Part shown: positions 13,272 to 58,620 of the stretch, one piece after another | How the letters are laid out: each line of letters opens with the position of its first letter | Numbering within the stretch: the stretch's first letter is position 1 | Assembly: GCF_964355755.1 (NCBI RefSeq) | Contig: NC_092672.1 | Location: 12,276,001 to 12,340,000 of the forward strand | Origin: Antedon mediterranea | Taxonomy: Eukaryota > Animalia > Echinodermata | Length of the DNA stretch: 64,000 nucleotides | Direction: 5' to 3' | The notes under the pieces: model-generated | What the model was told of the DNA's origin: nothing | What the model saw: the letters and a program-made list of their open reading frames with translations, nothing else | Database searches by the model: none | Program-made: the position numbers and the translations under genes

Positions 13272-14907
13272 CAGCGTTGCCAGCGATAAAATTTAAATTA
13301 TGCCGTATCCTGTCTCAAATAATGCCAGATTGGGAAAAATAATGCCAGATCCCCAAAATGTGGCCCTAAACAGCGCCACCAACGGTTGTATGTCTAATAA
13401 ACGTTTGTAAAACCCCAACTGACACAAAATAGGGCCTAAAATTGTATCCCCATGTCGTACAAAATTTATATTTTTAGTTTTGTGAGTATTAACTAATAAT
13501 TCTAAATATCTGGGGTGCGAAAATGGTAATTGCAAATGACACCAACACCAACCCCTACCCCCCCCCCCCCCCACCCTATAAAATAAAAAAACAGCCATGG
13601 AAATTTATAATTTTTGAGCTGAAATATGAGAGCTGCTCGATGGCCGGGATATTTGCACTTAATTTTAAAAAATGAAAGGATCTTATAGCCACCATAATTA
13701 GAAAATGGAAATTATAATTTAAAATAGGAAATAAAAAAGATTATTTTGAGTGTCTCCAGGACCTCAGCCCCACCATGGTTGATAAGAACATTTGGAAAAA
13801 TACAGCTACTCGATGGCCGGAAATGGCACTTAATTAATATGAAATAAAAATATATTTATTAGTGTCTCCATGATCTTAGCCCACCATAGTTCGAAAATGG
13901 CAATTATAATTTAAAATAGGAAATCAAAATATATATTAATTGTGTCTCCAGGACCTCATGGTTGGGGCTGAGGTAAGAAAATTTGAAAAAATAGAGCTGC
14001 TCAATGGCCGGAAATGGCACTTAATTTCAAATATAAAATAAATTTATTAGTACCTCCAGGATCTTAGCCCATGATAGTTTTGAAAGTGCCAATTATAATT
14101 TAAAATAGGAAATAAAAATATATATTAAGTGTTTCCAGGACCTCAGCCCCACCATGGTTGGGGCTGAGGTAAAACAAATTGGAATAATAGAGCTGCTAGA
14201 TGGCCGGAAATTGCACTTAATTTTAAATAAAAATGTATAAGAGTCCCTAGGACCTCGCCCCATCATGGTCACTGAGAGATGAAGAACATTTGGAAATATA
14301 GGGTTGCTACGACGATGCAAATGGAACATAATTTGAAATATGGAAAACAAATTCTCTAGAAGAAATTCTTTTTAAAATTAGAGCTTCTAGTTACCGGAAA
14401 TTGCCATTTTAAGGGTTGGGGTAGGGGTGTGGCCGCTTATAATTATGAACTGAAAAAACAAAACCCCTTTCATAATGTGTTTTCGTTCAATTGTCTCTAT
14501 ATCTGGGGATCCAATAACCTGCATGGTCTCTGAAATAGAGCAACATAATTGGCCAATAGGTAGCCTCTTCGGATTTGTTGTGCTGCCTATATCGCACACA
14601 CGGTAGTTTTCGAGCAGCCTTCCTATCCGAAGAGCCGATTAAGTCCGAAACGAAAGGATGGAAAAACTATTGTACGGAAAACCCGAACAGATCTGTTTTG
14701 TACGATATGATATTGTGTAGGGTGATATGTATTAACAAAATATTTTATTTTTGTTCTGTGGTATATTATTTTTCTGGTTGTTCAAAAAACACAAAATTAT
14801 GCCAGATTATGCTAAAAACGGCTAAATAATGCCGCGGCATTATGCCAGATGCCGTGGGCCTCCAAATAATGCCAAAAAGCATAATAATGCCAGAAATGGC
14901 AACTATG
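13272..14907. mobile_element. Non-autonomous hAT-like DNA transposon
   Basis: Perfect 8-bp TSD ctacaagc (13264-13271 and 14908-14915); imperfect TIRs cagcgttgcca / tggcaactatg; subterminal ataatgcca repeats; internal ~180-bp tandem repeats; absent from sister units. Confidence 0.85.
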
Positions 14908-16853
14908 CTACAAGCTTGCCGTTAAATAATTATAGAGGGGGTAGTTTCAATAAACTTTGGCAGACGGCAAACATACAATGTATAGAGTGCGTTTAAAAAT
15001 ATTTTCGGAGCTTATTAATGAGATCAGTATTTGTAGTAGACATGAAGACAATATATTTTAATTTAGATTGATTATTTGTGTAAGAGGAAAACATATACTT
15101 AGTTCTACTATCTGAATAAACTAAAGGGAATTCATCTTCAATTGATTGTAGAGAGCATAATTTGCATAGTCTATCATTTCTATTAGGCCTAATACGATTC
15201 CATCTTCCTTTTTCTAGTTATAATATTCCTAGTCTTTGTTTAGTCACAATGTGTCTATGTTTGTAATTTTAATTACGTATTCTTCCGTTCCAACATAATT
15301 TATATTGATTGCGTGTAAAATATTGGAGCTTATAGAGAGTGTAACCTATTATCTCATAGAATTGTGTCGTTCAATAAGCCTCGCCTTTGTTTAAATTTAG
15401 AAATAAAAAATATTGTTGACCTGTTGAGCATGCCATGTTGCCAAACCCATTTATACATAATAAGTTTTACATCATTGACCCAAATTGCTCATTTTGTTAC
15501 GTTTTTCTATGTTGAAAATCATAACATTGTTTAATGAATTTTTAATAATCTATTTGGCTTACTCTCAGCCACTAACGAATTAAATTAATGATAGTTGGAG
15601 TTTGGATAGGGAATCCTCGACATTCTCCTTTCATTACATCACTTGGAGCAGAATTTTCTATTCCTAAAATATATTTTTATTCTAAAATCAAAATATAATC
15701 CGAGTGGTATGAAGAAATTGTTCATCTGCTGGAAAACTACAAGTCAGTCGATGCTACAAACCACAAGGAAAGTCATTATATCTCAGATGCTAGTGAAGTA
15801 GTATGTGGTCAATGCACGTATTTAAGATTGATGACTCACGATAATATTCCTTCTATTTCTCTACTATTACAGTAGCTAACGCCAAAGTTACCCCAGCTAA
15901 AAAAAACAAGATATCAAGTGTATGTAGCTAACCGGGTACAACAAATCAACGATGCAACTTCCATAGAAAACATCTTCTAATCCGAGTGATATAGTCAGTA
16001 GAGCCGTGCGTGCTAACAGTAAGCAATTGATTTCAGATACCGGATGGGTGAGTAGTTCTACACTTCTTCACCAGGTAGTTCTTAACAAACAAAGGCGGTT
16101 GGCCGAAATCGATGACGAATCGAGTATAAGGTTGTTGCTTCAGAACTAAAATATATTCGCTCATTCCACACTAATGTTGACAAAGTTGCTTCAGAATGGT
16201 TTTATAACAGACAGATAAAATGAACTATAAATCACATTAAATGTATTGAATGTTCATTCCCCTTAAAGGAACCAACACGTAGTAAGGCATATTTTTTAGA
16301 TATGCCTATCAATGGTAAACTTAACAGTGATATAAGACAGCAAAACACATGCAATAATTTAATATGAAAAGATTGGTGTAAATATTGCGAGGAGCCATGT
16401 AACGGCAGTATGTGTAACCGAGTTAATGATTATGTAATTGTTGTTGAAGATATGCTCATCGGGAATAATTTGCATAAAATACCATGTTAGCCTACGTATA
16501 TTAGAAATCTCACTAGCTGTGTAGTTAGTTGAGACGATGCTATCGTCAGCTGCACGATTTTTAATATATTTTAAATTGTAGTTTTGCTTTGATAATAAAT
16601 GATTTTAATTATTATAATACAGAAGGGTTAGCATTGAACCCATTTTAGAAGTATTGGTTTAGCGTCTTGTTCAATCTAAAACGCTACAGCTACACAATTT
16701 TTAATATATTTTAAATTGTATTTTTCATTTGATAATAACTATACACTTTTCCAAAGAAAAACACATTAAACAAATCTAGGATTTACTTATAACGGGAGAT
16801 AATATAAATAATTACGCTATGGATTTTTAAATCATTGTATAAGAGTAATTTAC

Positions 16854-16958
16854 ATTTTTTGTTGCTGTAACTGATGCTCCGTTGGCTATAAGACTGTTCA
16901 CTATCTCTACATTACCCCTGCCAAACCTAACGTGTTCATGTAGCGGTGTGTTTCCATC
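16854..16958 (-). CDS. Gene A ANK exon 4: DGNTPLHEHVRFGRGNVEIVNSLIANGASVTATKN
   Basis: 105 bp, AG/GT bounded, phase 0-0. Confidence 0.9.
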
Positions 16959-17322
16959 CTGAAAAGAAGAAAGTTAGTATTATTATATTTCATATTTTTC
17001 TTTTCTAGATTCATTTTTTAATTCATTAAGAGTGACCGTAAATTATCTAGAAATACCTAGTATTAAGAAAATAATAAAACTTGTTTAAAAAGTATTAATT
17101 TCGCGTTTTTTTTTTATCTAAAACGCTACAGCTACACAATTTTCAATATATTTTAAATTGTATTTTTGCTTTGATAATAACTAAACATTTTTCCAATGAA
17201 AAACACAATAAACGAATCTATGGTTTGCTTATAACGGGAGATAATGTAAATTCACTTGTAGTGTTAACTAATACGAATAATTACGTTAATGATTTTTAAA
17301 TCATTGTATAAGAGTAATTTAC

Positions 17323-17427
17323 ATTGTTTGTTGCTGTGATTAGTGCTCCGTGAGCTATAAAACTGTTCACTATCTCTAAATTACCACGGCCAAACTCAAC
17401 GTGTCTATGTAGCGGTGTGTTTCCATC
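17323..17427 (-). CDS. Gene A ANK exon 3: DGNTPLHRHVEFGRGNLEIVNSFIAHGALITATNN
   Basis: 105 bp, AG/GT bounded, phase 0-0. Confidence 0.9.
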
Positions 17428-20400
17428 CTGAAAAGAAGAAAGTTAGTATTATTATATTTCATATTTATCCTTTTCTACATTCATTTTCTAATTCTAAGAG
17501 TGAATGTAAATTATATGGAAATACCTGGTATTAAAAAAATGACTAACTGATTTCAATTAAGACATGCAGATGATTTAGCAATGAACATCATTTTGAAAGT
17601 ATTGATTTTAGCGTCTTGTTTAATCTAAAATTCGACAACTGTACATGATGTTTAAATATCGTAAATTATATGGTGATGGTTAATAACTATAAATAATATA
17701 ATTTATTAAATTAATAAACATATTCCTACGGCTAGACATTTCGTTTAGATTCAAGTAAACTTTCATGAATACTGAATTTGTAGATATGTACGTATTTACC
17801 AAACCGCCTTCAAAACATAATTGCAAATTCCAACAATACACACTTACGGTGAATTCAATAAATATTTTGTTATATTATTAATCTACTATCCATCCCACCT
17901 TCATCCTACAATGAAAAAAAATATTACGTAATTCGTTTCTCCCATTTGCTATGAGGCTTTTGAATGCAAGCTATGTGTATGTATCGTGTTATATGACATT
18001 TGCCTTTTTGTTATATTTGTTGCATTTGTATTTTATCCGGTGACGTACTGTCTGTAGTTTACCATTTTTTTTTCTACTAGGAATAATAACGTTAATGATT
18101 TAAATAATAGTAAATCTCTGTCAACGCTACCAAACTGTATCAATAAAGTGTCGTACTGTCTGTATTTTACCAATTTTATCATATCTTTACTATATTTATT
18201 TAATATGTGACAAGCAGGACAATTTGTTTTACATTTCTCAGAGCTTGTTGGTATATCATCATAATTACATTTTTCACAAATTAAAATATTGTGGTTTAGG
18301 GCCTACATAGTTATTATCAAACATTCTCATATACAGTACTTCATTGCCTCTTTGTACTGTATTTCACCTTTCCTAGCTGTGGATGCTTGCCAACGTCGCA
18401 TAACATACTCGTTTAACTATCATTAATAACCAATAAACAAGTTAGCAAAATCTGTCTCACTACATTTGGCCAGTGCCATTAAAAAAACTTCTTGGAAGAG
18501 AGATGAGGATCTCAAAATCACAATAAATGCGTTAAAATTGAATCAAACAACAATAATAACAAACTACTATTTATCAACTGTGAGATTTAACAACAACAAT
18601 GTATCTCGTCTCTTTCCCTCAAGCTTGCCGTTACATAATTATAGAGGGGGTAGTTTCAATAAACTTTGGCAGACGGCAAACATACAATGTATAGAGTGCG
18701 TTTAAATATTTTCTGAGCTTACTACTAATGAGATCAGTATTTGTAGTAGACATAAGGACAATATATTTTAATTTAGATGGATTATTTGTGTAAGATGATC
18801 GAAAACATATACTTAGTTCTACTCTGAATAAACTAAAAGGAATTCATCTTCAATTGATTGTAGAGAGAATAATTTGCATAGTCTATCATTTCTATTAGGC
18901 CTAATACGATTCCATCTTCATTTTTCTAGTTATAATATTCCTAGTTAAGTCACAATGTGTCTATGTTTTTAATTTTAATTAAGTATTCTTCCATAATTCC
19001 AACATAATTTACATTAAATGCGTGTGAAATATTGGAGCTTATAGAGAGTGTAACCTATTATCTCATAGAATTGTGTCGTTCAATAAGCCTCGCCTTTGTT
19101 TAAATTTTGAAATAAAAAATATTGTTGACCTGTTGAGCATGCCATGTTGCCAAATCCATTTATTCATAATAAGTGTTACATCATTGACCCAAATCGCTCA
19201 TTTTGTTGCGTTTTTCTATGTTGAAAATCATAACATTGTTTAATGAATTTTTCATAATCTATTTGGCTTACTCTCAGCCACTAACGAATTAAATTAATGA
19301 TACTTAGAGTTTGGATAGGAAATCCTCGACATTCTCCTTTCATTACATCACTTGGAGCAGATTTTTCTATTCCTAAAAGATATTTTTATTCTAAAATCAA
19401 AATATAATCCAAGTGGTATGAAAAAATTGTTCATCTGCTGGAAAACTACAAGTCAGTCGATGCTACAAACCACAAGGAAATTTATTATATCTCAGATGCT
19501 AGTGAAGTAGTATGTGGTCAATGCACGTATTTAAGGTTGATGACTCATGATAATATTCCTTCTATTTCTCTACTATTAGCTAACGCCAACGTTACCCCAG
19601 CTAAAAAAAAACAAGGTATCAAGTGTATGTAGCTAACCGGGTACAACAAATCAACGATGCAACTTCCATAGAAAACATCTTCTAATCCGAGTGATATAGT
19701 CAGTAGAGCCGTGCGTGCTAACAGTAAGCAATTGATTTCAGATACCGGATGGGTGAGTAGTTCTACACTTCTTCACCAGGTAGTTCTTAACAAACAAAAG
19801 CTGTTGGCCGAAATCGATGACGAATCGCGTATAAGGTTGTTGCTTCAGAACTAAAATATATTCGCTCATTCCACACTAATGTTGACAAAGTTGTTTCAGA
19901 ATGGGTTTATAACAGACAGATAAAATGAACTATAAATCACATTAAATGTATTGAATGTTCATTCCCCTTAAAGGAGCCAACACGTAGTAAGGCATATTTT
20001 TTAGATATGCCTATCAATGGTAAACTTAACAGTGATATAAGACAACAAAACACATGCAATAAATTAATATGAAAATATTGGTGTAAATATTGCAAGGAGC
20101 CATGTAACGGCAGTATGTGTAACTGAGTTAATGATTATGTAATTGTTGTTTAAGATATGCTCATCGGGAATAATTTGCATAAAATACCATGTTAGCCTAC
20201 GTATATTAGAAATCTCACTAGCTAGTGTAGTTAGTTGAGACGATGCTATCGTCAGCTGCACGATTTTTAATATTTCTTAAATTGTGGTTTTGCTTTGATA
20301 ATAAATGATTTTAATTATTATAATACAGAAGGGTTAGCAATGAACACATTTTAAAAATATTAATTTAGGCTCTTGTTCAATCTAAAACGCTACAGCTACA

Positions 20401-20559
20401 CAATTTTTAATATATTTTAAATTGTATTTTTCCTTTGATAATAACTATAGACTTTCCAAAAGAAAAACACATTAAACAAATCTAGGATTTGCTTATAACG
20501 GGAGATAATTCAAATAATTACGCTATGGATTTTTAAATCATTGTGTAAGAGTAAATTAC

Positions 20560-20664
20560 ATTGTTTGTTGCTGTGACTGAGGCTCCGTTGGCTATGAGAC
20601 TGTTGACTATCTTTACATTACCCCTGCCAGACCTAACGTGTTCATGTAGCGGTGTGTTTCCATC
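20560..20664 (-). CDS. Gene A ANK exon 2: DGNTPLHEHVRSGRGNVKIVNSLIANGASVTATNN
   Basis: 105 bp, AG/GT bounded, phase 0-0. Confidence 0.9.
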
Positions 20665-22579
20665 CTGGAAAGAAGAAAATTAGTATTATTATATTTCATA
20701 TTTTTCTTTTCTATATTCATTTTCTAATTCATTAAGAGGGAATGTAAATTATATAGAAATACCTGGTATTAAGAAAACAATGACTAACTGATTTCAATTA
20801 AGACATGCCGATTATTTAGCAATGATCATTTTAAAAGTATTGATTTTAGCATCGTGTTTAATCTAAAATTCGACAGCTGTACATGATGTTTAAATATCGT
20901 AAATTATATGGTGATGGTTAGTAACTTTAAATAATATAATTTATTAAATTAATAAACATATTCCTACGCCTAGACATTTCGTTTAGATTCAAGTAAACTT
21001 TAATGAATACTGAATTTGTAGATCTGTATGTATTTACCAAACCGCCTTCAAAACATAATTGCAAATTCCAACAATACACTCTACAGTGAATTAAATAAAT
21101 ATTTTGTTATATTATTAATCTATTATCCATCCCACCTTCATCCTACAATGAAAATATTACGTAATTCGTTTCTCCCATTTGCTATGAGGCCTTTGAATGC
21201 AAGCTATGTTTATGTATCGAGTTATGACATTTGCCTTTTTGTTATATTTGTTGCATTTGTATTTTATCCTATAGGTGTCGTACTGTCATGTATTTTACCA
21301 TTTTTTTTTCTACTACGAATAATAAGGTTAATGATTTTAAATAATAGTAAATCTCTGTCAACGCTACCAAACTGTATCAATAAAGTGTCGTACTGTCTGT
21401 ATTTTACCAATTTTATCATATCTTTACTATATTTATTTAATATGTGACAAGTAGAAAAATTTGTTTTACATTTCTCAGAGCTTGTTGGTATTTCATCATT
21501 ATTACATTTTTCACGAATTAAAATATTGTGGTTTAGGGCCTACATAGTTATTATCAAACATTCTCATACACAGTACTTCATTGCCTCTTTGTACTGTATT
21601 TCACCTTTCCTAGCTGTGGATGCTTGCCAACGTCGCATAACATACTCGTTTAACTATCAAATAACAAATAAACAAGTAGCAAAATCTGTCTCACCACATT
21701 TGGCCAGTGTCATAAAAAAAAAAAAAAATTGGAAGACAGATGAGGATCTAAAAATCACAATAAATGCGTTAAAATTGAATCAAACAACAATAATAACAAC
21801 CTACTATTTATCAACTGTGAGATTTAAATGCATGCTTGAGTTGAGAGCAAGTAAAACCGTTAACAACAACAATGTATCTCGTCTCTTACCCTCAAGCTTG
21901 CCGTTAAATAATTATAGAGGGGGTAGTTTCAATAAACTTTGGCAGACGGCAAACATACAATGTATAGAGTGCGTTTAAATATTTTCTGAGCTTACTAATG
22001 AGATCAGTATTTGTAGTAGACATAAGGACAATATATTTTGATTTAGATGGATTATTTGTGTAAGAGGAAAACATATACTTAGTTCTACTATCTGAATAAA
22101 CTAAAAGGAATTCATCTTCAATTGATTGTAGAGAGCATAATTTGCATAGTCTATCATTTCTATTAGGCCTAATACGATTCCATCTTCCTTTTTCTAGTTA
22201 TAATATTCCTAGTCTTTGTTTAGTCACAGTGTGTCTATGTTTTTAATTTTAATTAAGTATTCTTCCATAATTCCAACATAATTTACATTGAATGCGTGTG
22301 AAATATTGGAGCTTATAGAGAGTGCAAACTATTATCTCATAGAATTGTGTCGTTCAATAAGCCTCGCCATTGTTTAAATTTTGAAATAAAAAAATATTGT
22401 TGACCTGTTGAGCATGCCATGTTGTCAAATCCATTTATACATAATAAGTTTTTCATCATTGACCCAAATCGCTCATTTTGTTGCGTTTTTCTATGTTGAA
22501 ATCATAACATTGTTTAATGAATTCTTAATAATCTATTTGGCTTACTCTCAGCCACTAACGAATTAAATTAATGATACTT

Positions 22580-23110
22580 GGAGTTTGGATAGGGAATCCT
22601 CAACATTCTCCTTTCATTACATCACTTGGAGCAGAATTTTCTATTCCTAAAAGATATTTTTATTCTAAAATCAAAATATAATCCAAATGGTATGAAGACA
22701 TTGTTCATCTGCTGGAAAACTACAAGTCAGTCGATGCTACAAACCACAAGGGTTTGGAGAAGTCAAGCAGGCAGAAATTCATTATATCTCAGATGCTAGT
22801 AAAGTAGTATGTGGTCAATGCACGTATTTAAGATTGATGCCTCATGATAATATTTCTTCTATTTCTCTATTATTAGCTGACGCCAGCTAAAAAAACAAGA
22901 TATCAAGTGTATGTAGCTAACCGGGTATACAACAAATCAACGATGCAACTTCCATAGAAAACATCTTCTAATCCGAGTGATATAGTCAGTAGAGCCATGC
23001 GTGCTAACAGTAAGCAATTGATTTCAGATACCAGATGGGGTGAGTAGTTCTACACTTCTTCACCAGGTAGTTCTTAACAAACAAAGGCGGTTGGCCGAAA
23101 TCGATGACGA
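22580..23110 (+). mobile_element. Degenerate BEL/Pao LTR-retrotransposon pol (RNase H region) fossil inside the 3.3-kb unit; copies at about 15600-16120, 19310-19830 and 25840-26370
   Basis: Reads LQVSRCYKPQGFGEVKQAEIHYISDASKVVCGQCTYLRLM, then YQVYVANRV, SNPSDIVSRA and WVSS across frameshifts. Matches the BEL/Pao pattern PRCY...ELHxFSDAS..YG...YLR / FVANRV / NPADxxSRG. Confidence 0.8.
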
Positions 23111-23849
23111 ATCGCGTATAAGGTTGTTGCTTCAGAACTAAAATATTTTCGCTCATTCCACATTAATGTTGACAAAGTTGTTTCAGAATGGTTTTATAAC
23201 AGACAGATAAAATGAACTATAAATCACATTAAATGTATTGAATGTTCATTCCCCTTAAAGGAGCCAACACGTAGTAAGGCATATTTTTTATTAGATATGC
23301 CTATCAATGTTAAACTTAACAGTGATATAAGACAACAAAACACATGCAATAATTTAATATGAAAAGATTGGTGTAAATATTGCAAGGAGCCATGTAACGG
23401 CAGTATGTGTAACTGAGTTAATGATTATGTAATTGTTGTTGAAGATATGCTCATCGGAAATAATTTGCATAAAATACCATGTTAGCCTACGTATATTAGA
23501 AATCTCACTAGCTAGTGTAGTTAGTTGAGACGATGCTATAGTCAGCTGCACGATTTTTAATATATTTTAAATTGTAGTTTTGCTTTGATAATAAATGATT
23601 TTAATTATTATAATACAGAAGGGTTAACAATGAACACATTTTTAAAATAATAATTTAGGCTCTTGTTCAATCTAAAACGCTACAGCTACACGATTTTTAA
23701 TATATTTTAAATTGTATTTTTCCTTTGATAATAACTATACACTTTTCCAAAGAAAAACACATTAAACAAATCTAGGACTTGCTTATAACGGGATATAATA
23801 TAAATCATTACGCTATGGATTTTTAAATCATTGTATAAGAGTAATTTAC

Positions 23850-23954
23850 ATTGTTTGTTGCTGTAACTGATGCTCCGTTGGCTATGAGACTGTTCACTAT
23901 CTCTACATAACTCCTGTCAGACCCAACGTGTTCATGTAGCGGTGTGTTTCCATC
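23850..23954 (-). CDS. Gene A ANK exon 1: DGNTPLHEHVGSDRSYVEIVNSLIANGASVTATNN
   Basis: 105 bp, AG/GT bounded, phase 0-0, TPLH motif. Confidence 0.88.
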
Positions 23955-26840: not shown

Positions 26841-26934
26841 CTTATCTATGGAGTTCACAAGATGTGGTTATGTTTTACATATTTCTTCAATTTTTTCCAA
26901 ATTTCTATATCTTACAGCTCTTAGCAATACGTTT
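26841..26934 (-). CDS. Gene A ankyrin N-cap exon with in-frame TAA
   Basis: Strong acceptor (pyrimidine run + cag) and AAG|gtatag donor. Reads (E)NVLLRAVRYRNLEKIEEICKT*PHLVNSIDK and ends in phase 0, joining DGNTPLH of the first ANK cassette. Confidence 0.75.
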
Positions 26935-29900
26935 CTGAAAAAAAAGAAAGATAAAAATGAATCATGGCTAGAATACTCGGTCGATGATGTTAATATGTTT
27001 ATTTGTCATGTTTCTAAACAATAATAAATACAATTTTCTTTGAACTCTTTATAATATTAAAAGTTTGTTGGATATAAAATGTAAAGCTTACTTCTCCATT
27101 TAAAAAATGCAGTCAGTTTGAAGAAATAACTTACTCATCCATTGAAAGAGTGGTTGCTGAAAAATGAAACGTAAACTTAATTTATTAGGTGATCATTTAG
27201 AATAAAATGATCACATATTGTTATTGTATGAAATCTTTAATATTATTGTTTCTGTACTCTTTTTGTGTAACAATTATCTCAAAAAGTTTAATGTCAATGA
27301 TCACAAAAATTTCACCATGTCAAATACTTTAACTTAGTCCAAATAAGCTTTTCAGCGTGATCACTCACCCGTGACGTCATTTATACGCCATTTTGTGAAA
27401 TCACATTATCAATCATATCTCCATAAATTCATTATCACAAATTAATGAAATTCACTACACGTAAACTTCAGGTCAATGTAAAGATATTAGCAAATCGTGA
27501 AATCGCGCGTTAAAAATTGAAAAAGCTCAAAGTTAAGTTTTGATCAATGATTTGAGCATGAATTAGGATGTACGTGTTTCAAAATTTACTGCGCTTTTTG
27601 CGCACGCGATTCTTAGAAAGCGTAAAAAATTAAATTTGATGTATACATCACATTCTACTCACAATCCTTAGTACATTCACTTATTTTGAGTCCATTCCGA
27701 CTTAAAATTACGCTCTACGAGCACGTTAAAGATAACAAAATGCGCACATTAATTTCACAAAAATTCCGAAAATGGTGAAAAATAGGTCTTTTTTAAAATG
27801 GAAGAAACTCTTCAGAATGCAAGATGACCCCACTTATACGGGAAGCCATTGAGTTGTAGATATGAATTCATGTACACATTTGACGTACAAAATGTTGTTA
27901 CGTCACCAAATGGCCACTTGAATTTAAAAATTGGGATTTTTTGCTAAATTAATTATCTTTATCATGACTTGCCACTATTTTTGTTTGATGACGTCATCAC
28001 GCGTAAAAACTTGAGTAACATTGGTCGAGTAATTTCACCTTCAGCGTATATTTGAATATCTCACAGCTCTTCAGAATTAAAGGTGACCTTGATTAATTTA
28101 ATTTATTGTGAACAGCTGATGAAATTTAGATTAAACAATTAAGCCGATCGAATGTTGTGACGTTATGATATGGCCAGTTGAATTTAAAAAGTAGTTTTTC
28201 ATCTCTTTCGTCACATTTATAACAATTTTAAATAGCGCGCACTGCGAAATTTTCTTCCAAACCTTATATTTTTTTGCTCAATTCATTATCTTTCGAAATT
28301 GTCATCTTCAAGTTTATTTTATGTGGGTCCCGTAAGTGCATCTATGCTACACTGTATATGGATATACAGTATACTGTACATATTATATATGACACATAAT
28401 ACTGTAGGTACAACTCAGCACTAAAAGTGTATAATGCATCATGTCATAGGATGGCGTACATCAACTTTTTACGATCGTATGTTAACGTACATGCATGTTT
28501 AAAAAAATTTAATTTCATTAAAATTATAAAAATGATCCCGTATAATTCGTCAAAGTGACGAATTAAGAGCCATTGTCTGTAAGAATCAAAGAAATATAAA
28601 AAAGAGTGGCAGACTAAAAAAAAATGGATTTCTTTCAAATTTTGCACATGGCTATATATGTGTTGAGAGAAATCAAATATGAAGTATTTTTTATTTCACA
28701 CGTATATTTCCATGGCAACGGCCAAATTTGTGTTTTTGACAAATTTTTTCCTTTTTTAAGGTTTTTAAAAATGGATATTGGTACTATTTTGATGAACGAT
28801 ATTTTTGTTTTGTTCATTTAATTATAAAAAATAATTAGTGAATGCATAATAACAATGCATTGTGTACCTGTTTCAAATTTTTTTATTTTTTTTTATTTCA
28901 TACTTTGGGAGATAGCATTTATTTAAAAATGGGTGTTTTTCACTTTTTTTAAATTGTTCAATGCAACTAAACTTTACTTCACCATAACGCCCAAAGTGGT
29001 GTATTTTTTTAGCTGATTTATTACAAATAGGTAGTTCTAATGTTTAATAATTGATTTCTAAAATAAAATACTGGGTTAAATTTAAAATCTACAAGCAGTT
29101 TTACGAGAAACATAGGCATTTTTATTTTTAAAAAAAACATGGTATGTTAGTAAAAACATTTTATTTTCTTTGATTATTTGATTTGAAACGCATTGGTCAG
29201 AAAAATTCTTAATGTTTTATATAGTTCTAGTTGTGTTGCGAGAAAAAAAACCCAATATTTTTAATTATAGATTCTGTAATTCCCAGTTTTAATGTCATTT
29301 TATAGGTTATATCCTCTGGAAATTTGAATAAATTATCAGATCAATTTTAATCCTTGCAACATTACTCCTCACTTATTTTGAAGCTCCTCTTTCATTTGTT
29401 TACTTCTTTTATTTGCTAACATAAGCAGATCCCACGTGCCCATCCACCACCACTTTTGACTACCCCCCCCCCCCCACCCCGACAATAACCACAAACAGAT
29501 AAACTGCAACACTGGTCGATCATCCACTATAGAGTGTCAAATGCATGCACTCAAGCACCACCCACACTGCCGCTACCATCGCCCCTATGAATAGACGGAT
29601 TCAAACTCCTCCAACCCACCCCCTTCCCCTTTCTCCAAGCCCCCATCCACCCAAAGTTCAAAATTGCAATGCAAAAGATAGGACATAAAGTTAAGTTTTT
29701 AGACCCTCGCCTTCAACCCCCTAACTATTTAAAAGTCCTGAATCCACCACTTTCCCCTCCCCAAAATAGAACCAATCAAAAGTCAATGATATAGGCCTAC
29801 TCAGGTATGTTAATGCTACATAACAAATATTGAAGCCCTGATTTGAAATTTCATTTCATTTAAGGTCAGCATGTAAAATATCACACTTTATTATTAAATA

Positions 29901-47215: not shown

Positions 47216-50200
47216 CTGTAGAAAGAAACCAATAACAAGAATATTAAGATCAATATTGCAAATGGTTACACTTATCCTTTTGTTTACAGTAAATAACTGT
47301 TGAATACCATAGACAAAACACATTCAATTCACTTTCCTATCGTGCATGGTTGGTGTAAAATTTACCTGTGTGAATTGGTGCTGGCTTTACATTACTTCTG
47401 CCTGGAAATGAAATGATAATTGCAACAATAATGTTTTATTTAATATCTTCAAACGTTTTGCAAACATTATCATTATAAGATACTCTATGTATACAATTTA
47501 TATATTTATTTTTAATAATTTATATGATTATTTTATTTTTATTATTTATTATATTTAATACGAAATACATACATGAGTGTGTAAACTAACCTTCCAAAAA
47601 AAAGCACTTCAAGTAATCTGTTTTCATGGACCTCTTGCCACATGGAACAATTTTGTTACCTTCTTTCAAACACTCTTCCAGATCGTGTAAATGAATGTGC
47701 TCTGGAAAACAGGCGATACACAGCACACGTAGGTTATAACCAATTCCTTCATTAGTTTTCAGCACAGTCTTTAGTTGAAGCTTCAAATACTTTAATATCT
47801 ACAACAAATAATAATAAATTTGAATTAAAGGTTTCACATAATTGCATTCAGGTAAGCTATTAAATTAAAATCTTAGAATCTTTACCTCAATGCACAAGCT
47901 CGGGTTTGGTTCATATATTACTTCTATGTCATTTTCGTCAACTTCAATTCGATGGGATATTTCAAGCTGTTAAAAAAGATGTATTTATTTATTACAATAC
48001 TTACATTCTACATCTCACTCAGACTGCTTACGTCTACTGTTGCATTTCATTTCTCGGGTGAATATCATTTGACTTTTAGAATCATTCAGCAAATTACCAC
48101 AAGCTCGACACAAAAATATTAAGGCTTTTAAAAAAATCGCCTCTATATAATAATTTAAACTCTATTTTTCTAAGATTACTCATTATCTCTTTATTTTGTC
48201 TTATTTCTAGGATAATATTTCTAAGAATCTCAAACGAATACATATTATTGGAAAAAAAACATGTTCTAATTTTTGTAATCCCAGCTCTTAAATCTCATTC
48301 TCTGTAGTCACCAACAGATGTATTTGGTTCTTATTGCTTCTATAACTGGATGAACGTTCCTAAAAGAGACTAAACTGCATAACATAATCCGAAATAAATG
48401 ATAATTTTACATTTGTTTAATAAATTACTAATGCTATGCTAGCTAACTTAACAGACATATTACATATTCAAACTGATGGTAAATTATGAGTTAAATGAAT
48501 ATTCATACCTTCAACGCATGCCTGTTTTCATTTTGATGCTCGATTTTCACGGCACCTAAACGAACCTCATGATCTCCAAAGTCAAAATCACTACGATTTT
48601 GAAATACAACTGGATCGCGTAGTCTACCGTTGAGCTCCACCAGGTTCAGAAATGCAACAACTAATGTATTGTAGACAGCATTAGGCAGAAAGTCAGTAGG
48701 TGTAAGATACATCGACACCGTATGTTTCTCGTCTTTTTCAACTTTCAGGCTCTCTTGCGTGTTTTTCATTCGAGATGGAACAAGGAACAACCGGTTGTCT
48801 TCGCTTCGGTGCTGATGCAAACAACAGTTGAATTATATAGTGTTATAAAAAAGTAACATCGATTTGGAATAGGCCTACTATAATAATCTCTGATTTAATT
48901 AAAAGCCAAGATGCTTAACCTACTTGTAATTTCTCATAGAGCAAACCAAATGTTTTCATCACTTCAGTAAAGATTTCAAAACGCTTTGAATCTTCCTGTA
49001 ATTCATGTTTCCATAAATGACGTAGCAGTTTTTCCTCAAGTATTCCTTCCTTGTTAAGCTTATTCCATAGCATTCTTAGTTCTTTCTGTTACCAAATAAT
49101 AGAGAAAATAATAAAAACTTATACATACAGTACACTATAAAAGTGCAATACATTTTCATCAAAACAAGTAATTCGTTTTATATCAACATTGTTTTGTGAC
49201 AATTATTTTGCTAACCTTATCTACTTACCACTTCAATAGTTGGTTTAACTACTGTGATCACTTTTGTCACCATTTCAATCATCATGTAAAGATTTGTTAT
49301 CACTGTGTTTCTTAATTTCTTGTTAGTACTTGAATACATGATAACTCCAATGTCATTCAGGTACCCTATGGCAGTGAATAGCCCATCTTTTGAAATTCCA
49401 CATTCAGTGCCGATTTTAGATGTCTAATGCAAATTAATAACAAAATAGACTGTACTGAATTTGATGATTAAATATTGTTATTTTCCTTTAAAATAATTGT
49501 AAACAGCTTATTGTTGAATAAAACATATTTTTATCTAACATTCTTCCTTTTGACTTGACATTTTAGAAATCGCATTGTCGAGAAGGCCTATTTCTAGTTA
49601 AATGTAACTGTTTGCTTGCATTTTTCATATTTAATTTACATTATCTTTGTTCAGTTTTTTTAAGATGATAACTAGCTTTTTATTAACATTACGAAATAAA
49701 CAATTCAATGTTTGATTTCATTAATAATTTTAGTTGCTCATCTTTTGCAGGAACAACTAAAATAAGAAAAATAGTACAATAATGATGAAGACTTCCAAAT
49801 ACTAAAAAATGACAAGAAATCTATATTTACTATTGTAATATTAATTCACATCGCTGGCTGAACAAAGAACTTGTCAACATTACATTGTAGACAGAAATGT
49901 GTCCTTCAAATTATTACGTTATACATTATAATTGTTACCGTATAGTACACTATTTTTAATAAGATAATAAATTATTTTAGTACCAGCGTTCATACTCTAT
50001 ATGTGTTTTATAAATCTGTGTTTACAGTTGTGACAACATAAAATAAACGGTTATACATTAAAAACCAAAATCTTACCTCAGTAAAAGTAATACACAGTGT
50101 TGTTTTTCCAATTTCTTGCAACTGTTCTTGCAAATCCACCCATTTTAATGGAACACTTCTCACCATGGCCTTCATGTAACGACCAACGTTTCTCCTTAGT

Positions 50201-53200
50201 TGTTTTATACCTTCATGCGATTTTACAGTGTTATCAACAATGTACATTTCACGATCTACATGATCGGCATATGGCATTCCTTCCATTTTTTCAAACATTT
50301 TACGAAACTTATCCTCCACTTCCTTTAATAACAAGTGTTTTCATAATTACATGCTATAACAACAACAAGAATGTAATTATTCTTACTAACTGTTATTTCA
50401 TATTCTGATTTGAATAAGTCTAACCGATAATTAAACTTAATACTCGATTTAATTTGAGGATCGTAGGCTACGCTATTTATATTTCATCACTGTATCGGTT
50501 TTAACTAATTCAGCCTTAATCCCGTCCGTGTATACCACATACCGTTGCAAAATTGTAAGCTTATTTAATGTTAATGTACGTCTGTTACCTTGATCCAATT
50601 TTTTGTTTTTGACTTTTTACGAAATGTGTCCATATGTGTAGCAACCAAACAGATAGGAGGTGACTCGATGATCTTGCCATCAATATTAATGGGACTTCCT
50701 GGACCATGTTGTGCCACAGTATGTTCATAAATGGACCTTATCCAGAACATATTCATTTCCGAATTGGTCATTCCTAGTGTACTCTAAAATCACAAATAAA
50801 ATTCAATCTTACAAAGTAAGCTAACATATTTTCAATAACAAAGATATGCATATTTAATAAAGTGTATTCGAGCAAATAAGTCGGTACTGTAGGCACTTAC
50901 TGTAATTGAATCTCGCGGATTAGCTGGTTCATCCAAGTTATCACACGCATTAAACGCTACACAGTAGGATACTCTATTTGTGAGGAAAAACTAAACAAAA
51001 TACAATTGATAATAATAACTTTTTTTATACTCCAAGTCATTTATTAGGGATGTGTTAATTGATACATGCAATAATACTTTAGAGAAAATGTTATACCCCA
51101 ACACAATGTCGTACTGTCACTATGAGCAAATCTCTTTATTTTTTAATAATCATTTAACATATAAAACAAAAACTATGAACAAAAGAAAAAATACAAAAAT
51201 CAAATAAAATTGTAAAATATAATTTAAAGGTCTGTATAATAGAATAGATACGTAAACAAGCAAATCAATGCCCTTTTTTTAAACATGCACCAATAAATTT
51301 ACTTTTTAATTTTTAAGACATTTTTAAGTAATAGCAAATAACAAAATAGGAACATACCCTATGCGTTATGTAGTAGTCCAGTTGACCTGCGTAGTCCCAT
51401 ATAGTAGTTACGTCACTTGGAATACTTTCTGAATCATCACTTCTTCTTTTTACAAATTTCCTAATCATTTTTATGGCCCAACTATCTTTCTGTCTTCGCT
51501 TTTTTATTTTAGCAACAACTTTTCTTTGAATGGAGTCGGGAATTGTCAGATTTTCTTTTAGTTGACTCTCTAAATTCAAATAATGACTACAAATCAATGG
51601 GGTGTGTGTACATTAGATATGGATATGGATAGATGGACTGGTCTGATATGTTGTGAGTAGACATAATGAATGTTAATTTGGATAAAAAAGTGTATACAAT
51701 AAATAAATACATCAGTCAGGATGATTAAAGAATTGAACGAGCAGTGAATAAACACATTTATTTGTTTGCAACAAGAAAAGAAATCTCACTCTTCCCTGGT
51801 TGGACTAACTTTTTGAGAACAAAATTTTCCAGAATGTTTCATACTAATGGTACAATGCCATACATATTATTTTATCAAATATAAAGAAAACCAAATAATG
51901 AGTCCAACCCTTTCTTGCCGATTCCACTGCCAATGACGTGTAATCAGACTCTCTGGAATCAGATGTAGAAGCCTCGCCTAAAGAAAGTTCGTTGAAAGAT
52001 GTTCTTTCTTTCATCTTTGATGTAATTTCTTCCACTACAGCCTCTTCAAATATTCTCTGGGTTTGCTTGAATCTGGAGTTTTCTGTCGGCGAAAATGTAT
52101 AACTAAAAATGATTATTTGTGTCGTGTTGCACTCATAACGAATAAAATGGTTATATTATTATATACTAGAGCAGTGAAATATCACTTATATGCCTGTATA
52201 AACTCCACAGTTTAACAAGTACTACTTTATATTAATAATAATAAAACAATAATATAAACAACACTCCTATGAAGTTATAGTGTGATAATTTTGTGTTTCT
52301 TTCAGTATCAGCATGTATAATACACTACATTAATTTATTATTTACATTAAGTTGGTTTATTTACTTTTTTTAAGAAAAGAAATTACTATTTTAGATCTTG
52401 TCATGCAATTAATTTGTTGTTTATTAATTCGTGCGAGGACTTGTTAGGCCTATTAGTAAAGTGATTGTATGCGAAACGACCACACTTTATTTATACAAAA
52501 TGATCGTCAAAAATATTTTTAAAAATAATCAAACCTTCCACTGAAGACACAGAGTCAGAAGATATAGAACATTCCAAATCAGATATGGAAGGTGCTGCAC
52601 CTTGTAAATTGAATTTGGTTTCAGTTGACGTTTGTTTTTCCATATTTGCTGTGATGTGTTCAGGCGTTTTCGGGGATGATCCTGCAATTCATTATAATAT
52701 ATTTTTGATACAATATAATAGACTGTATAACATTTCACTTTTATGTATGTTTCAATACTGTATGAGTGCATCTTAACTTGATTATGATCACCAATACAGT
52801 TTGTTTAGAATAATAAAAATACCCTTGTAATAGATATTATAGTAGATATTCATCATACCTGTTTTTACTGGATCCAAAGAAGAGATTGCTGATGATTCCA
52901 GTTGGGAATCAGATTTAGATGTTGACATATCTGAACTTCCTTCACCATCATCCATTTCTTCCTTTATTAACTGTGTTGCAAGTTTTTCTGCAAGTGCATC
53001 TTCCCGTATTTTCTTGTGGAGCTCCATAACTGTAAAAAAAAAAGGTGAAATAAGATTGTACGATAAACATAATAGAGATAAATTAAAATACTAAAATTAG
53101 AGAAATGAGATACATCATCATATCATCATCATCACCTGTAAAATACAATAAATATGTAGGTAATTTATGTAATTATAGACCAAAATGCATTTTTAAGTAT

Positions 53201-56200
53201 TTGATAAAAATATTATTTCCAGTGTACCTTACCGGTACGTTTTTACCTTTATTATGATACAAATTAATCTCTATACACAAATTGGCCAAAGCAGGCAATT
53301 ATGCGTTTGTTGAAGGAAGAAGAAAGAGAGAGTTTCTCTCTTTTGTGGGGACAGCTCACTTTGAACGAACAGTTAATGTGTTATTTGGTATGGTTGAATT
53401 CTTTTTTTCAAACTTACCGTCGATATCTTCCTTCTTCCACTTGTCACACTCTTTTCCAATTGCTTGAAACAATGTCGTTGTGATAGCAATACCATCAGTA
53501 GATGGTTCGTTGGATTTAAATCTATAATAATGAATAATGAACTCTAAAAGGTCGGATTTAATGAAAGGAGAATGTATCCAATAGTTCATCTTAAAATATT
53601 AATATATTTAAAATAAAAACGAAGTGAAGATCACAAGTAAATAAGCATATGCTTCACACCTCTTGGGGATATTTAAAACAAACTGAAACTTTCAGCAGCA
53701 GAATTTGCATAAACATCGTCGTCACCATCACCGTCAATGTCACCATCATCGTCATTATCATCATAATTGCCATTATAATCATCATCATTATTATTATTCG
53801 AAAAGGAATGAAAACCCGTTACTCAAAGACGAAACTTCAGGTATCAACTATTTAAAATAAGAACCTCACTAATACCAATTTTTGTATTTTATTGAATAAT
53901 TACATATCAAAATACTCAGCACCAAACTTATTATAAACAAGAAATCCAAACAACTCGTTAAATGTTGTCAATTGCATTAGAGATACTTATGAAAAAAGAT
54001 AAAGTTTTTTAAATGGTTCAAAAAACAAAAGATTGATTTTAATATATTTTTTGATAAGGAATGTTATGCCATGACTATTATAGAGAACATGAATACAGGA
54101 TTAAAAATAAATGAGCACTTAATCTACTGTAATGGTAAAAACACCATTCAAATTGTATTATAAATACTTTATATTGATGAAGATCATGTATTTTTTTATT
54201 GGTGCATCTTATAAAATAACTTTGTTTTTGTGTTACCTTTGTCCAAGCATGGCCTTTACACAGCTAGTTTTTCCAGCACCTTCTTTCCCGAGAAACATAC
54301 ATCTTGAATTTACAACTGCAATCTCACCATTTTCAAGTTCATTTTGAAATGATCTAATTGCGCTCTTACCTCTAGCTAATATTTCAACTGGAACTAAATT
54401 GCGATTAAAATAAATGTAAAATATACAAAAACAAATGTACAAATACAAATATTTTACATTTAAGAATCATTTCAAAGCCAGAGTTTTAAAACTGTCATTA
54501 TGAGAGCTCATCTTCTTCACATTCATACAGTTCAAAGGTTCAGTACAATGTTCATTGTGTGTCATTAGTAATACACTGCACTTTAATATTCATGATGCAA
54601 AACTCAATCAAAGTGTATTAATTAATACAAACTTACTGTCAAGTAACTTCAATATCGTATTTTTCTGTTCTTTGGAGATATCACTATTATCCTTCAAAGC
54701 AGATGCTGGTGTTTGTCCTTGCTATACAAAAAATGTATTAAAGTATTATCCACTGTTGCTTTACTAATCTATATATAAATTTACGTAAGGAAAAAAATCG
54801 GTAAATCGCCCCTTACTTCTAGAATTTTTATTTGATGGTATATATAGTTGGTTCGTACTTTCGGTACTGATTTTAACCACCTTATGTAACTCTGTTTACT
54901 AATTAAATTGAGTTAGATAATTATTTATTGACGATTAAAGCGAATTTACGATTTGCCCCGAATAGAGATGTTTTTCACAAATTGTTTTACACTAGATGTT
55001 TTACGCTAGATGGTATCATCTAGGTCGTGCCCACAGATTGTTCTCGAATACACAGTAATTTCAGCGTAACAAAACTGGCGATTTCAAATGTACGTACCGC
55101 GGGACTATAATACATTGTCGTTTACAGAAACGAATAAATAGACACGATGATCTAAAACATTTTAATGAAGTATTGGAATAAATCAACACAAAAAGTAGTC
55201 CAATTTGGCGATGCGCTCGGACACAAACTATTACTTTTTGGGTGTATGTTTTCTTTAGACATCAAATTACTGCCATTGTTTGCCTTTTTTGTGTTTATCC
55301 TTAAAAAAAATCAGGAAAGTGAAATAGCCTATCGTGTGCGGCCCATCAATAAACATCAGTGTGCCAAATGTAAGCACGTACCGTTCAGTGGTTTTGGAAG
55401 ATATACATAAAAAAAAATATAGTAGCATTAATATTTAGATGCTAACATAATGTCTTTAAACAATTGGCGCCCTTTCTGATATTCTTTTGCTCCATCAAGA
55501 TGATGATTACTGTGTATTAGTTAACAAAAGATTTGTAATATTTTAAGTTACTAACATACTCCTAATCAAAATAAGAGTATACCATGGATATAGGCGTAAT
55601 GGTTTGCTTAATAAGCACAATTTAAAACTGAAAATGCAATGTTGCTGAATTAATTGACGGTACCTTATTTCTTGCTTTAAGTGATGCTCCGTGGGCTATT
55701 AGACTGTTCACTATCTCTACATTACCATAGCCAACCATAACGTGTTGATGTAGCGGTGTGTATCCATACTGGAAAGAAGAAAGTTAGAATAAACTTGAGC
55801 CATTTTTTTCAAGAATACAGGTAGTATTATATTACTTTTTTTTTCTATATTTCATTTTGTAATTCATTGAGAGTGACTGTAAATTATATAGAAAGACCTG
55901 GTATTAAGAAAATAATACAACTTGCTGATTTAAATTATTATAATACAGAAGGGTTAGCAATGAACACATTTTAAAAGTATTAATTTAGCGTCTTGTTCGA
56001 TCTAAAACGCTACAGCTACATGATTTTAATATATTTTAAATTGTATTTTTGCTTTGATAATAACTATACATTGATTCGAATGAAAAACACAATAAACGAA
56101 TCTAGGGTTTGCTTATAACAGGAGATAATTTAAATTCACTTGTAATGTTAACTAATACGAATAATTACATTAATGATTTTTAAATCATTTTAAAAGACTA

Positions 56201-58620
56201 ACTTACATTGTCTGTTGCTTTGATGGATGCTCCGTGAGCTATGAGACTGTTCACTATCTCTACATTACCATAGCCACCCTTAACGTGTTCATGTAGCGGT
56301 GTGTTTCCATCCTGGAAAGAAGAAAGTTAGAATAAACTTGAGCCATTTTTTTCAAGAATACAGGTAGTATTATAGGGTGTGTAAAAAGCGACGACCTCGA
56401 ATTGGACGACCCCAACGACCCAGGCGACCTCGAATTGGACGACCTAGAATTGGACGACCCATAACACGAAACCGACGACCCCTATAATAGCCTAGCCTAG
56501 CCTAGGCCTAAGTATGGTATAACATCCCGAAGCCGAACATAACCAAAGATCTTTAAACCATACCTTATATAATACTCGCAAGCAAGCAATTGATTGAAAA
56601 AATACAGAAATATCGCCATTTGATACTGAATGTGTCGACACGAACAAACGAACAGATATGGAACGCCAAGAGTGCATCATTAAAACTGCATTCGACTCGA
56701 TTAGCACACGAAATATCATAAACATGGCAAACCAGGCCCCTTTTTCAGCGGCAGGTAAGGTTTGACCATGGAGGTATATTTTACCTCCATGGTTTGACCA
56801 GCTCCATGGTTTGGTAAAAATATTTTTATACCTCCATGGTTTGACCGTATACAATGCATGTGTGAAATGTAAAGCTTTCTTATGGCCCTCCCCCATGCAG
56901 GATTAGGCCAAGTTGAGCCGCCGACAAGTTGAGGCGCCGCCAGAAAAACGTTATTTTCTATGAAACGCCAAATTCTTACTTTCGCCGGTGCTCGTTTCTA
57001 TTTAATAGAAGTTCTATTTATATTAATTATTAGATATAACGATGTATATTCCAAAGTTTATATATCACGGTTTTTAGTATAATTATTATTAAATATTATA
57101 ATTAAAGAGAAATAATTATGAATATCTGACTTGTAGATTCCAAAATATAAGGCCTAAAACATGACCGAAAATGATCGTTTTTAGCCAAAAATGACGTAAA
57201 CATGTTGCCCCCTCAGGCGGCAGTTGAAGTAAAATAATTGCATAAAATCACCGTTTTTTTGGAAAATATTTTGTGTATTAACATTGTAAAATTCAATAAA
57301 ATATGATATTAAAAGATAGTAAATAAAAAATAATAATTATTTAACCTCATTCGAAGAATATCAATACTCTATTAGTCCTGAGAGACAACGTGATTTTACG
57401 TGGTAAGCATACACGCGAGAAAAATATTATGGAGTGCACTGCATTTTTACCTTGAAAGATTAAAAACAATTAAATTATTAAATATGACTACTTTCCTTAG
57501 CTGTTTCAAACCAACAAAATTGTAGTATGTAATTATTATTTATTTTCATGACACAACAAACCTAAAGACCATGAACTTATGTAGGGCCTACTAGGACACC
57601 ACTCTATCACTAGGCGAAATGTCGTAAAAGACGCACTGGCCGTTTCATAGAAATTACCGGCGGATCAACTTGTCGGCGGCCCAACCGGTCATATCCCCCC
57701 ATGCACATGTTACGCTGCTTGGTAGGCCTATAGTGTTCGTTATAAGAAGACGAGATGTAATTATACGTCCATGGTTTAACCATGTATTGTATAATATTTA
57801 TTTCTTTTTAATTTATTTTTAATATGTCGAATGCAGTTTTAATGATGCACTCTTGGCGTTCCATATCTTTTCGTTTGTTCGTGTCGACAGAATCAGTATC
57901 AAATGGCAATATTTCTGTATTTTTTCAATCAATTGCGTGCTTGCGAGTTTTATATAATAAGGTATAGTTTTGATCTTTGGCTATGTTCGGCTTCGGGATG
58001 TTATACCACACTTAGGCCTAGGCTATAGGGGTCGTCGGCTATATGGGTCGTTCAATTCGAGGTCGTTCAATTCGAGGTCGCCCGGGTCGTTGGGGTCGTC
58101 CAATTCGAGGTCGTCGCTTTCTACACACCCTAGTATGATATTACTTTTTTTTCTATATTTCATTTTGTAATTCATTGAGAGTGACTGTAAATTATATAGA
58201 AAGACCTGGTATTAAGAAAATAATACAACTTGCTGATTAGAATTATTATAATACAGAGAGGTTAGCAATGAACACATTTTAAAAGTATTAATTTAGCGTC
58301 TTGTTCAATCTAAAATGCTACAGCTATACTATTTTTAATATATTTTAAATTTTATTTTTGGTTTGATAATAACTATACATTTTTTCCAATGAAAAACACA
58401 TTAAACGAATCTAGGGTTTGTTTATAACGGTAGATAAATGTAAATTAACTTGTAGTGTTAACTAATGCGAATAGTTACGTTAATGATTTTTAAATCATTT
58501 TAAAAGAGTAATTACATTGTCTGTTGCTGTGATTGATGCTCCGTGAGCTATGAGACTGTTCACTATCTCTACAATACCATCGCCAAGCGTAACGTGTTTA
58601 TGTAGCGGTGTGTTTCCATC
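46686..58620 (-). CDS. Gene B: ankyrin-repeat / Roc-COR (ROCO) / tandem-DED protein, 5'-incomplete (N-terminal exons not found, presumably beyond the retrotransposon and window edge)
   Basis: Twenty GT-AG exons splice in frame to TAG at 46686 (about 1136 aa in window): 58620-58516, 56311-56207, 55768-55664 (ANK), 54721-54637 (ANK C-cap), 54393-54237, 53521-53418, 53029-52859, 52681-52535, 52082-51909, 51569-51358, 50990-50901, 50783-50589, 50322-50077, 49423-49229, 49085-48924, 48811-48509, 47966-47886, 47798-47591, 47401-47366, 47215-46686. Roc motifs: PVEILARG, G1 GKEGAGKTS, G2 STDGI, G3 IWDYAGQLDYYITH, G4 LVATHMD. COR-like YLNDIGVIMY...VITNLYMMIEMV and FLVPSR. Confidence 0.9.
54768..55437 (+). 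mobile_element. 3'-truncated Helitron in a gene B intron
   Basis: Begins a|TCTATATATAAATT, the same 5' end as 11324, and is absent from gene A. Homology to gene A resumes near 55438 with ~260 bp of host intron missing; no CTAG/hairpin end found. Confidence 0.6.
55664..55768 (-). CDS. Gene B last internal ANK exon: YGYTPLHQHVMVGYGNVEIVNSLIAHGASLKARNK
   Basis: 105 bp, AG/GT bounded, phase 0-0. Confidence 0.9.
56207..56311 (-). CDS. Gene B ANK exon: DGNTPLHEHVKGGYGNVEIVNSLIAHGASIKATDN
   Basis: 105 bp, AG/GT bounded, phase 0-0. Confidence 0.9.
56375..58130. mobile_element. Mutator-like long-TIR (foldback) non-autonomous element in an ANK cassette intron
   Basis: About 350-bp TIRs (gggtgtgtaaaaagcgacgacctcgaattggacg... 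/ ...cgtccaattcgaggtcgtcgctttctacacaccc). Flanks tagtattata / tagtatgata (TSD 6-10 bp depending on boundary). Empty site at about 55822. Confidence 0.8.
56900..57696. mobile_element. Second Mutator-like MITE nested in the previous element
   Basis: Perfect 9-bp TSD ccccatgca (56891-56899 and 57697-57705); TIRs ggat...gccgccgacaagttga and its inverse. Confidence 0.8.
58516..58620 (-). CDS. Gene B ANK exon: DGNTPLHKHVTLGDGIVEIVNSLIAHGASITATDN
   Basis: 105 bp, AG/GT bounded, phase 0-0. Confidence 0.9.

Follow-up and report, generated by a model that had tools for sequence, protein, structure and literature searches.

Positively selected codons in the duplicated ankyrin exons of a tandem ROCO gene family from the crinoid Antedon mediterranea

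Introduction

This work concerns a stretch of 64,000 nucleotides from Antedon mediterranea (assembly GCF_964355755.1, contig NC_092672.1, positions 12,276,001 to 12,340,000; hereafter the window), which holds two tandem ROCO genes, A and B, with the domain order ANK-ROC-COR-DED-DED. Their N-terminal parts are made of ankyrin (ANK) cassettes: each is a 105-bp phase-0 exon that encodes one ankyrin repeat, with a flanking intron that has been duplicated along with it. A preliminary description of this DNA had pointed out that the variable codons of the exons change at positions 1 and 2 while position 3 stays fixed, and had read the pattern as strong diversifying selection on a repeat that is otherwise homogenized by concerted evolution. 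The locus raises the question of whether selection, mutation, or lost constraint produced this pattern, and of what kind of protein carries it. We find that the codon pattern is real, that its mechanism is ordinary (positive selection on duplicated exons), and that its setting is new. Positive selection is supported at codons 8, 11, 12, and 14.

Results

Codon pattern of the cassettes

The 12-mer encoding TPLH occurs in 12 exact copies, each of them on the minus strand, where chance would give a mean of 0.21 and none of 100 shuffles yielded as many, and blastn gave no further copy in the window. The previous count of 12 is thus correct, but only ten of the copies are exons of 105 bp bounded by AG and GT; of the other two, one measures 108 bp and one, at 9442, is broken. 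As described, the TPLH codons are identical in 12 of 12 copies, synonymous sites included, and codon 8 is NNA in all 12 while specifying six amino acids. Among the ten 105-bp exons, codon 12 is always NNT, codon 13 is always NNC, and codon 11 is NNG in nine. Fixation of position 3 therefore holds for the codons listed but not for codon 14, which encodes four amino acids and varies at position 3 too; in addition, third positions vary in public sequencing runs, and the invariance is at most borderline (see below). Mean column identity of the repeats is 80%, loop length varies in frame (34 to 36 codons), and 14 distinct loops are found among 15 repeats (10 from the window and 5 from the family protein P0012).

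Tests for diversifying selection

Codon models were fitted to the ten 105-bp exons of the window (35 codons), leaving out the 108-bp and broken exons. We used our own Muse-Gaut implementation and three trees, based on the intron, the exon, or both. Models with a class of omega >1 won on all three trees, with twice the log-likelihood difference at 21.5 to 27.6 (21.5 to 25.2 for each of M8a versus M8 and M1a versus M2a). The top class had an omega of 6.0 to 7.4, and posterior probabilities exceeded 0.99 for codons 8, 11, 12, and 14.

A comparison of nonsynonymous with intronic divergence had been set beforehand as the check that could refute selection. Tree length at positions 1 and 2 of codons 8 and 11 to 14 was 3.73 substitutions per site (2.38 to 5.68), compared to 0.54 (0.45 to 0.64) for the intron; the other first and second positions gave 0.38. 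Codons 8, 11, 12, and 14 change at ∼7 times the intron rate. When the intron rate was used as a neutral clock, these four codons passed Bonferroni correction with an omega of 7.7 to 11, and when the clock was raised by 50%, only codons 8 and 11 still did. Codon 13 was rejected as a selected site, selection there being unsupported (omega, 2.6; p = 0.08).

The likelihood test is inflated by recombination: 7 of 44 null simulations exceeded 5.99 (the 5% level), with a maximum of 16.9 and none at 21.5, compared to 0 of 21 above 5.99 in null simulations without recombination. Nominal p-values are therefore too small. For this reason we added a tree-free statistic, in which shuffled tracts allow for recombination and the choice of the top four codons is built in. 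Under full neutrality, 0 of 1,000 nulls reached the observed value at a tree length of 0.54 and again at 0.64; at 1.14, double the rate, 0 and 1 of 1,000 did. The claim of diversifying selection is thus supported for codons 8, 11, 12, and 14 (omega, ∼6 to 11) but not for codon 13.

Third positions and public sequencing runs

Third positions of codons 8 and 11 to 14 had a tree length of 0.61 (0.15 to 1.61), the same as that of all third positions (0.61) and close to the intron value. The quiet third position is neutral background and no separate phenomenon. The probability that codons 8, 12, and 13 are all invariant at this position is 0.22 at the intron rate and 0.03 to 0.06 under an omega of 7, for codons chosen post hoc. 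Equal rates at position 3 and positions 1 and 2 were rejected (p = 0.0004, again with codons chosen post hoc). As third positions evolve at the neutral rate while positions 1 and 2 are fast, a mutational hotspot, which would strike position 3 too, is excluded.

Four public runs, X1 and X8 (organism A) and X5 and X7 (organism B), were compared among 40 of 51 variant rows; X1 is possibly the source sample itself and has 23 contigs that span the loop. Depth-weighted diversity at positions 1 and 2 of codons 11, 12, and 14 was 0.35 to 0.72 in the four runs. At position 3 it was 0 to 0.13 for codon 12, 0 to 0.33 for codon 13, 0 to 0.54 for codon 11, and 0.20 to 0.38 for codon 14, values that may be inflated by spurious changes at position 3 from loops of a different length. 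Frozen third positions were rejected as a mechanism: their rate equals that of the intron, and those of codons 11 to 14 vary in these runs. As a separate observation, codons 2 to 10 (window 56285-56308 and equivalents) show zero third-position change in the ten exons (P = 0.06 to 0.11, not significant after scanning); a splicing enhancer or a conversion anchor is possible there.

Homogenization and copy history

Cassette introns are 7 to 13% apart overall (10.5% among those of gene A, 12.8% when the two genes are compared), and the single-copy introns of A and B differ by 9.5% (∼5 to 9% in the 5′ part and 13 to 23% in the 3′ part). Because the cassette introns are about as divergent as the single-copy ones, recent tandem duplication explains their similarity equally well. 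A PHI-like recombination test was positive (p = 0.01; 54 informative sites). What survives of concerted evolution is this recombination signal; recent duplication with some recombination is the likely history, and ongoing conversion is not required. The gene B introns, described as near-identical, proved only similar, with 25 differences in 357 aligned bases (introns after exons 58620 versus 56311). Upstream flanks differ at 0 of 60 positions between exons 56311 and 55768 and at 8 of 73 between 58620 and 55768, and the intron that follows the last ANK exon has a sequence of its own. Separately, divergence between genes A and B is about twice as high in the 3′ parts as in the 5′ parts (window 84-3310 versus 47366-49423), and gene A shares 96% identity with paralogue P0010, which suggests mosaic paralogues.

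Structure of the repeat

In the predicted model of P0012, codons 5 to 11 form helix 1 and codons 12 to 16 form the loop, with a predicted local distance difference test score (pLDDT) of 80 to 97 by block over the repeats. The modeled fold matches designed ankyrin repeat proteins (DARPins) and ankyrins (template-modeling score by target, 0.91 to a DARPin). Relative to the 33-residue ankyrin consensus, the loop of the repeat is two residues longer. Codon 12 corresponds to position 14, one of those randomized in DARPins. The ANK-N5C library randomizes positions 2, 3, 5, 10, 13, and 33, its concave binding surface, according to excerpts of the source (PMC4308713). Codons 8 and 11 are ANK-N5C positions 10 and 13. 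From the P0012 model and the library positions, codons 8, 11, 12, and 14 are predicted to line the binding groove, or concave face.

Gene layout, relatives, and splicing

The features of the locus are collected in Table 1. Gene B has an open frame running from three ANK exons through a C-cap exon, ROC with a long insertion, and COR to a last exon with two DED-like stretches. Pfam Ank matches 3 of its 3 ANK exons, and the repeat is not a leucine-rich repeat (LRR). Judging from gene A's layout, gene B probably starts outside the window, beyond a long terminal repeat (LTR) retrotransposon. The three G-box motifs of ROC are intact in the gene B model, and ROC would be predicted to bind and hydrolyze GTP. 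Gene A comprises a start exon and an N-cap exon together with nine ANK copies and a body like that of gene B; here it is broken by a stop inside the N-cap exon and by AA instead of AG at one acceptor, for which a nearby acceptor might perhaps substitute. Its cassettes form tandem units of ∼0.5 kb and ∼3.3 kb, intron included (codon table and self-blast).

Table 1. Features of genes A and B in window coordinates
Feature	Position	Strand	Evidence or remarks
Gene B ANK exon 1, 105 bp, phase 0	58516..58620	-	AG/GT ends, open frame; Pfam Ank 27.2 bits (cut-off 21.1)
High-copy insertion within the intron that separates gene B ANK exons 1 and 2; long terminal inverted repeats	56373..58132	.	Arms of 91-132 nt, 95% complementary; very high depth in sequencing runs
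Gene B ANK exon 2	56207..56311	-	Codon 8 at 56290-56288; codons 11-14 at 56281-56270
Gene B last ANK exon	55664..55768	-	
Gene B C-cap exon, ankyrin domain	54637..54721	-	In run X8, spliced onto an ANK exon
Gene B ROC GTPase exons	50077..54393	-	P-loop GKEGAGKTS, WDYAG, ATHMD; long low-complexity insertion
Gene B COR exons	47591..49423	-	COR-A E 1.9e-5 and 4.7e-4 on single exons
Gene B final exon, with a pair of DED-like domains and the stop codon	46683..47215	-	Pfam DED E 1e-7, 2 stretches, 32.5 bits
Gene A start (27142-27135) and N-cap (26934-26841) exons	26841..27142	-	In-frame stop 26870-26868; matches P0012 N terminus
Seven intact 105-bp gene A ANK exons	9955..23954	-	Starts 23954, 20664, 17427, 16958, 11064, 10561, 10059
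Inactivated gene A ANK exon	9341..9442	-	Intron-like DNA in place of middle; in-frame stop; 102 bp
Gene A last ANK exon, 108 bp	8502..8609	-	Loop longer by one codon
Gene A C-cap, ROC, and COR exons	84..8036	-	AA acceptor before 5936; DED exon beyond window

The two gene bodies match the unannotated Antedon mediterranea RefSeq proteins P0011 and P0001 at 99.4% and 99.7% identity. The ankyrin arrays are absent from both of these models and would thus escape domain surveys. P0012, on the same scaffold, has an N-cap, six such repeats, and a C-cap, and paralogue P0002, 77% identical to gene B, matches Roc at 41.2 bits and COR-A at 55.6 bits, above the cut-off. Structure matches to Roco proteins are bacterial and archaeal (4wnr, 3dpu, and 6hlu). 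At least nine RefSeq models lie on one scaffold, with relatives on three more. C-terminal domains among the 14 family proteins scanned include DED, Death, HEPN_DZIP3, and ZU5, and a similar DED pair occurs on a NACHT-LRR protein of Anneissia japonica (P0032). Pfam scans found no NACHT or NB-ARC in P0002, P0012, P0006, and P0013 and no kinase in the last three; gene A begins with an N-cap exon. When the protein models were read by eye, no signal peptide or membrane segment was apparent. Other Antedon subfamilies (P0159, P0006, and P0013) have repeats of 35 to 38 amino acids, and the loops of P0006 and P0013 differ in sequence and length.

No run with the sequence is recorded as RNA; X8 was judged to be spliced from its junctions. 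At its N-cap-to-ANK junction, 27 of 30 loose letters match the end of the window N-cap exon, and the place of the gene A stop is taken by a sense codon. Junctions between ANK exons comprise three loose-end rows and one back-joint. The ANK-to-C-cap junction matches at 28 of 29 letters, and the DNA runs X5 and X7 show an intron there (compared by eye). These junctions belong to members of the family, though not demonstrably to gene A or B. In a related Antedon gene, the RefSeq models of isoforms X1 and X2 (P0160 and P0060) differ by exactly one 36-amino-acid repeat.

Several repeats surround the genes. A Gypsy-type LTR retrotransposon (window 59531-64000, minus strand; 3′ LTR, ∼60823-59531), with integrase and reverse transcriptase/RNase H in separate open reading frames (ORFs), lies upstream of gene B's first visible ANK exon and is probably intronic. 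A very high-copy repeat (window 54770-55240) occupies the intron after gene B's last ANK exon, and a 71-bp satellite (41 copies, 96% matches, window 41606-44520) separates genes B and A. Besides the ANK cassette, the 3.3-kb duplication units (window 14911-26511) bear a decayed LINE-like fragment (ORFs 21904-22197 and 25148-25456).

Discussion

DAPK1, a conserved gene, has the order ANK-ROC-COR-death and carries an N-terminal kinase domain; unlike it, genes A and B have no kinase exon. The comparisons that follow are with excerpts of the papers cited. The exon-shuffled LRR-ROCO genes of brown algae (Zambounis et al., PMC3341825; Teng et al., PMC11378527) share N-terminal repeats on ROC-COR, one repeat per phase-0 exon, clusters, and pseudogenes, as well as positive selection at a few concave-face sites, a face assigned here from the P0012 model and library positions. 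Intronic exons that are inactivated or inverted, and alternative splicing of repeat exons, also mark the algal type; of the 12 ANK copies in the window, one is inactivated and none is inverted. The algal repeats are LRRs of 24 amino acids (72 bp), whereas those described here are ankyrin repeats of 35 amino acids (105 bp), with a C-terminal DED pair, in an animal. Fungal NOD-like receptors (NLRs) whose ANK repeats are highly conserved (Dyrka et al., PMC4986451) likewise have selected sites on the inner helix or concave face and a logic of repeat sensor, NTP switch, and effector. Their switch, however, is a STAND ATPase rather than ROC-COR, and in genes A and B the repeats are separate exons with co-duplicated introns, their identity of 80% lying below the fungal criterion of 85%. 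A NACHT or NB-ARC domain, concerted evolution of the repeats, and differences in repeat number among individuals also mark the fungal type. Prokaryotic AP-GTPase/COR conflict systems (Kaur et al., PMC8195603) resemble the family in fast-evolving N-terminal repeats, a GTPase-COR core, and an interchangeable C-terminal effector, but the bacterial repeats are LRRs. The family thus falls outside the algal, fungal, and bacterial systems on repeat type or NTPase. Like ANK-N5C and DARPin libraries, it has an N-cap, modular internal repeats, and a C-cap, with variable positions 10 and 13 matching codons 8 and 11; unlike them, it is natural, a two-residue loop insertion carries codon 14, and the beta-turn positions are mostly constant. 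In searches of the open literature, mostly at the level of listings, no account of ANK-ROC-COR-DED exon arrays in crinoids or other animals came up. PMC11378527 covers roughly forty animal domain combinations, and its domain tables may list this architecture; excerpts of PMC8229355 and PMC9334734 served as background only.

On balance, we think it probable that the cassettes belong to a tandem ROCO family, were duplicated in tandem, and have come under positive selection at four predicted groove codons, the protein being a likely intracellular non-self sensor with a ROC-COR switch and a death-effector-like tail. Under this account, unequal crossing-over would raise the number of cassettes, and the residues of codons 8, 11, 12, and 14 in the variable groove would contact a ligand, as the paralogue model and library positions suggest. 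From what is established for ROCO proteins, sensing might then switch the ROC-COR GTPase, and from DED-family knowledge, the DED-like tail might recruit caspase-8/FADD-type partners.

Several points, in addition to the inflated likelihood test, weigh against this account. The data set is small (ten sequences by 35 codons), and seven of these sequences belong to gene A, with its stop and lost acceptor. The related subfamily P0159 has near-identical loops. Codons 12 to 14 lie inside the two-residue insertion, a region of low constraint, and the beta-turn positions, which binders also use, are mostly invariant here. The DED score of 32.5 bits is under the Pfam cut-off of 35.9, and the DED exon matched no solved DED structure in a structure search. 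The immune role is proposed by analogy.

The alternative that survives best accepts positive selection but gives it a nonmicrobial target, such as self/non-self tissue, gamete, or symbiont recognition or conflict with selfish elements. The selection tests are blind to the partner, and allorecognition genes are among the fungal ANK-repeat NLRs that bear this signature (excerpts of PMC4986451). We nevertheless regard it as unlikely, given that the models show no apparent signal peptide or membrane segment and that the death-fold and HEPN tails of relatives are typical of defense systems (excerpts of PMC8195603).

Far less probable is that relaxed constraint in the loop insertion and recombination between cassettes mimic selection. 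The in-frame length variation, the recombination signal, the inflated null tests, and the broken state of gene A are in its favor. Relaxation cannot exceed the neutral rate, however, and the variable codons exceed the intron nearly sevenfold, with nonoverlapping ranges; the neutral tract-shuffled simulations never reached the observed value at the intron rate, and codon 8 lies mid-helix. This alternative is largely refuted.

Local hypermutation or template-driven rewriting of positions 1 and 2, by a process like a diversity-generating retroelement (DGR), a deaminase, or donor micro-conversion, we consider the least credible of all: third positions of codons 8, 12, and 13 are slightly quieter than an omega of 7 predicts, and NNT/NNC codons varying at positions 1 and 2 resemble the DGR signature, but the equal-rate test speaks against a hotspot, adenine is invariant at codon 8 position 3 and in TPLH, and pairwise changes comprise 120 transitions and 117 transversions involving all four bases. 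DGRs work from a template repeat, with adenines at the variable sites and adenine-specific change. A retroelement template was rejected as a candidate, as adenines are invariant in the region and the window holds no template-like copy (with ≤2 mismatches allowed, 0 of 10 loop 15-mers recurred outside the exons of the 64-kb window).

Returning to the selected-sensor account, a bolder extension can be put forward only tentatively, and we lean against it: crinoids may hold a natural DARPin library, germline arrays of interchangeable, selected ankyrin exons, from which alternative splicing and recombination would build many cytosolic receptors, with a ROC-COR switch and a death-effector pair as readout. 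Such a system of variable receptors in a deuterostome would be based on neither NLRs nor immunoglobulins.

If the sensor account is true, the exon-per-repeat ROCO sensor design, so far brown-algal, would also occur in an animal, there combined with another type of repeat and a death-effector output, and animal and brown-algal ROCO sensors would have converged on the same layout. It would also give the kinase-free ROCO expansions of invertebrates a concrete role and mark the residues to swap.

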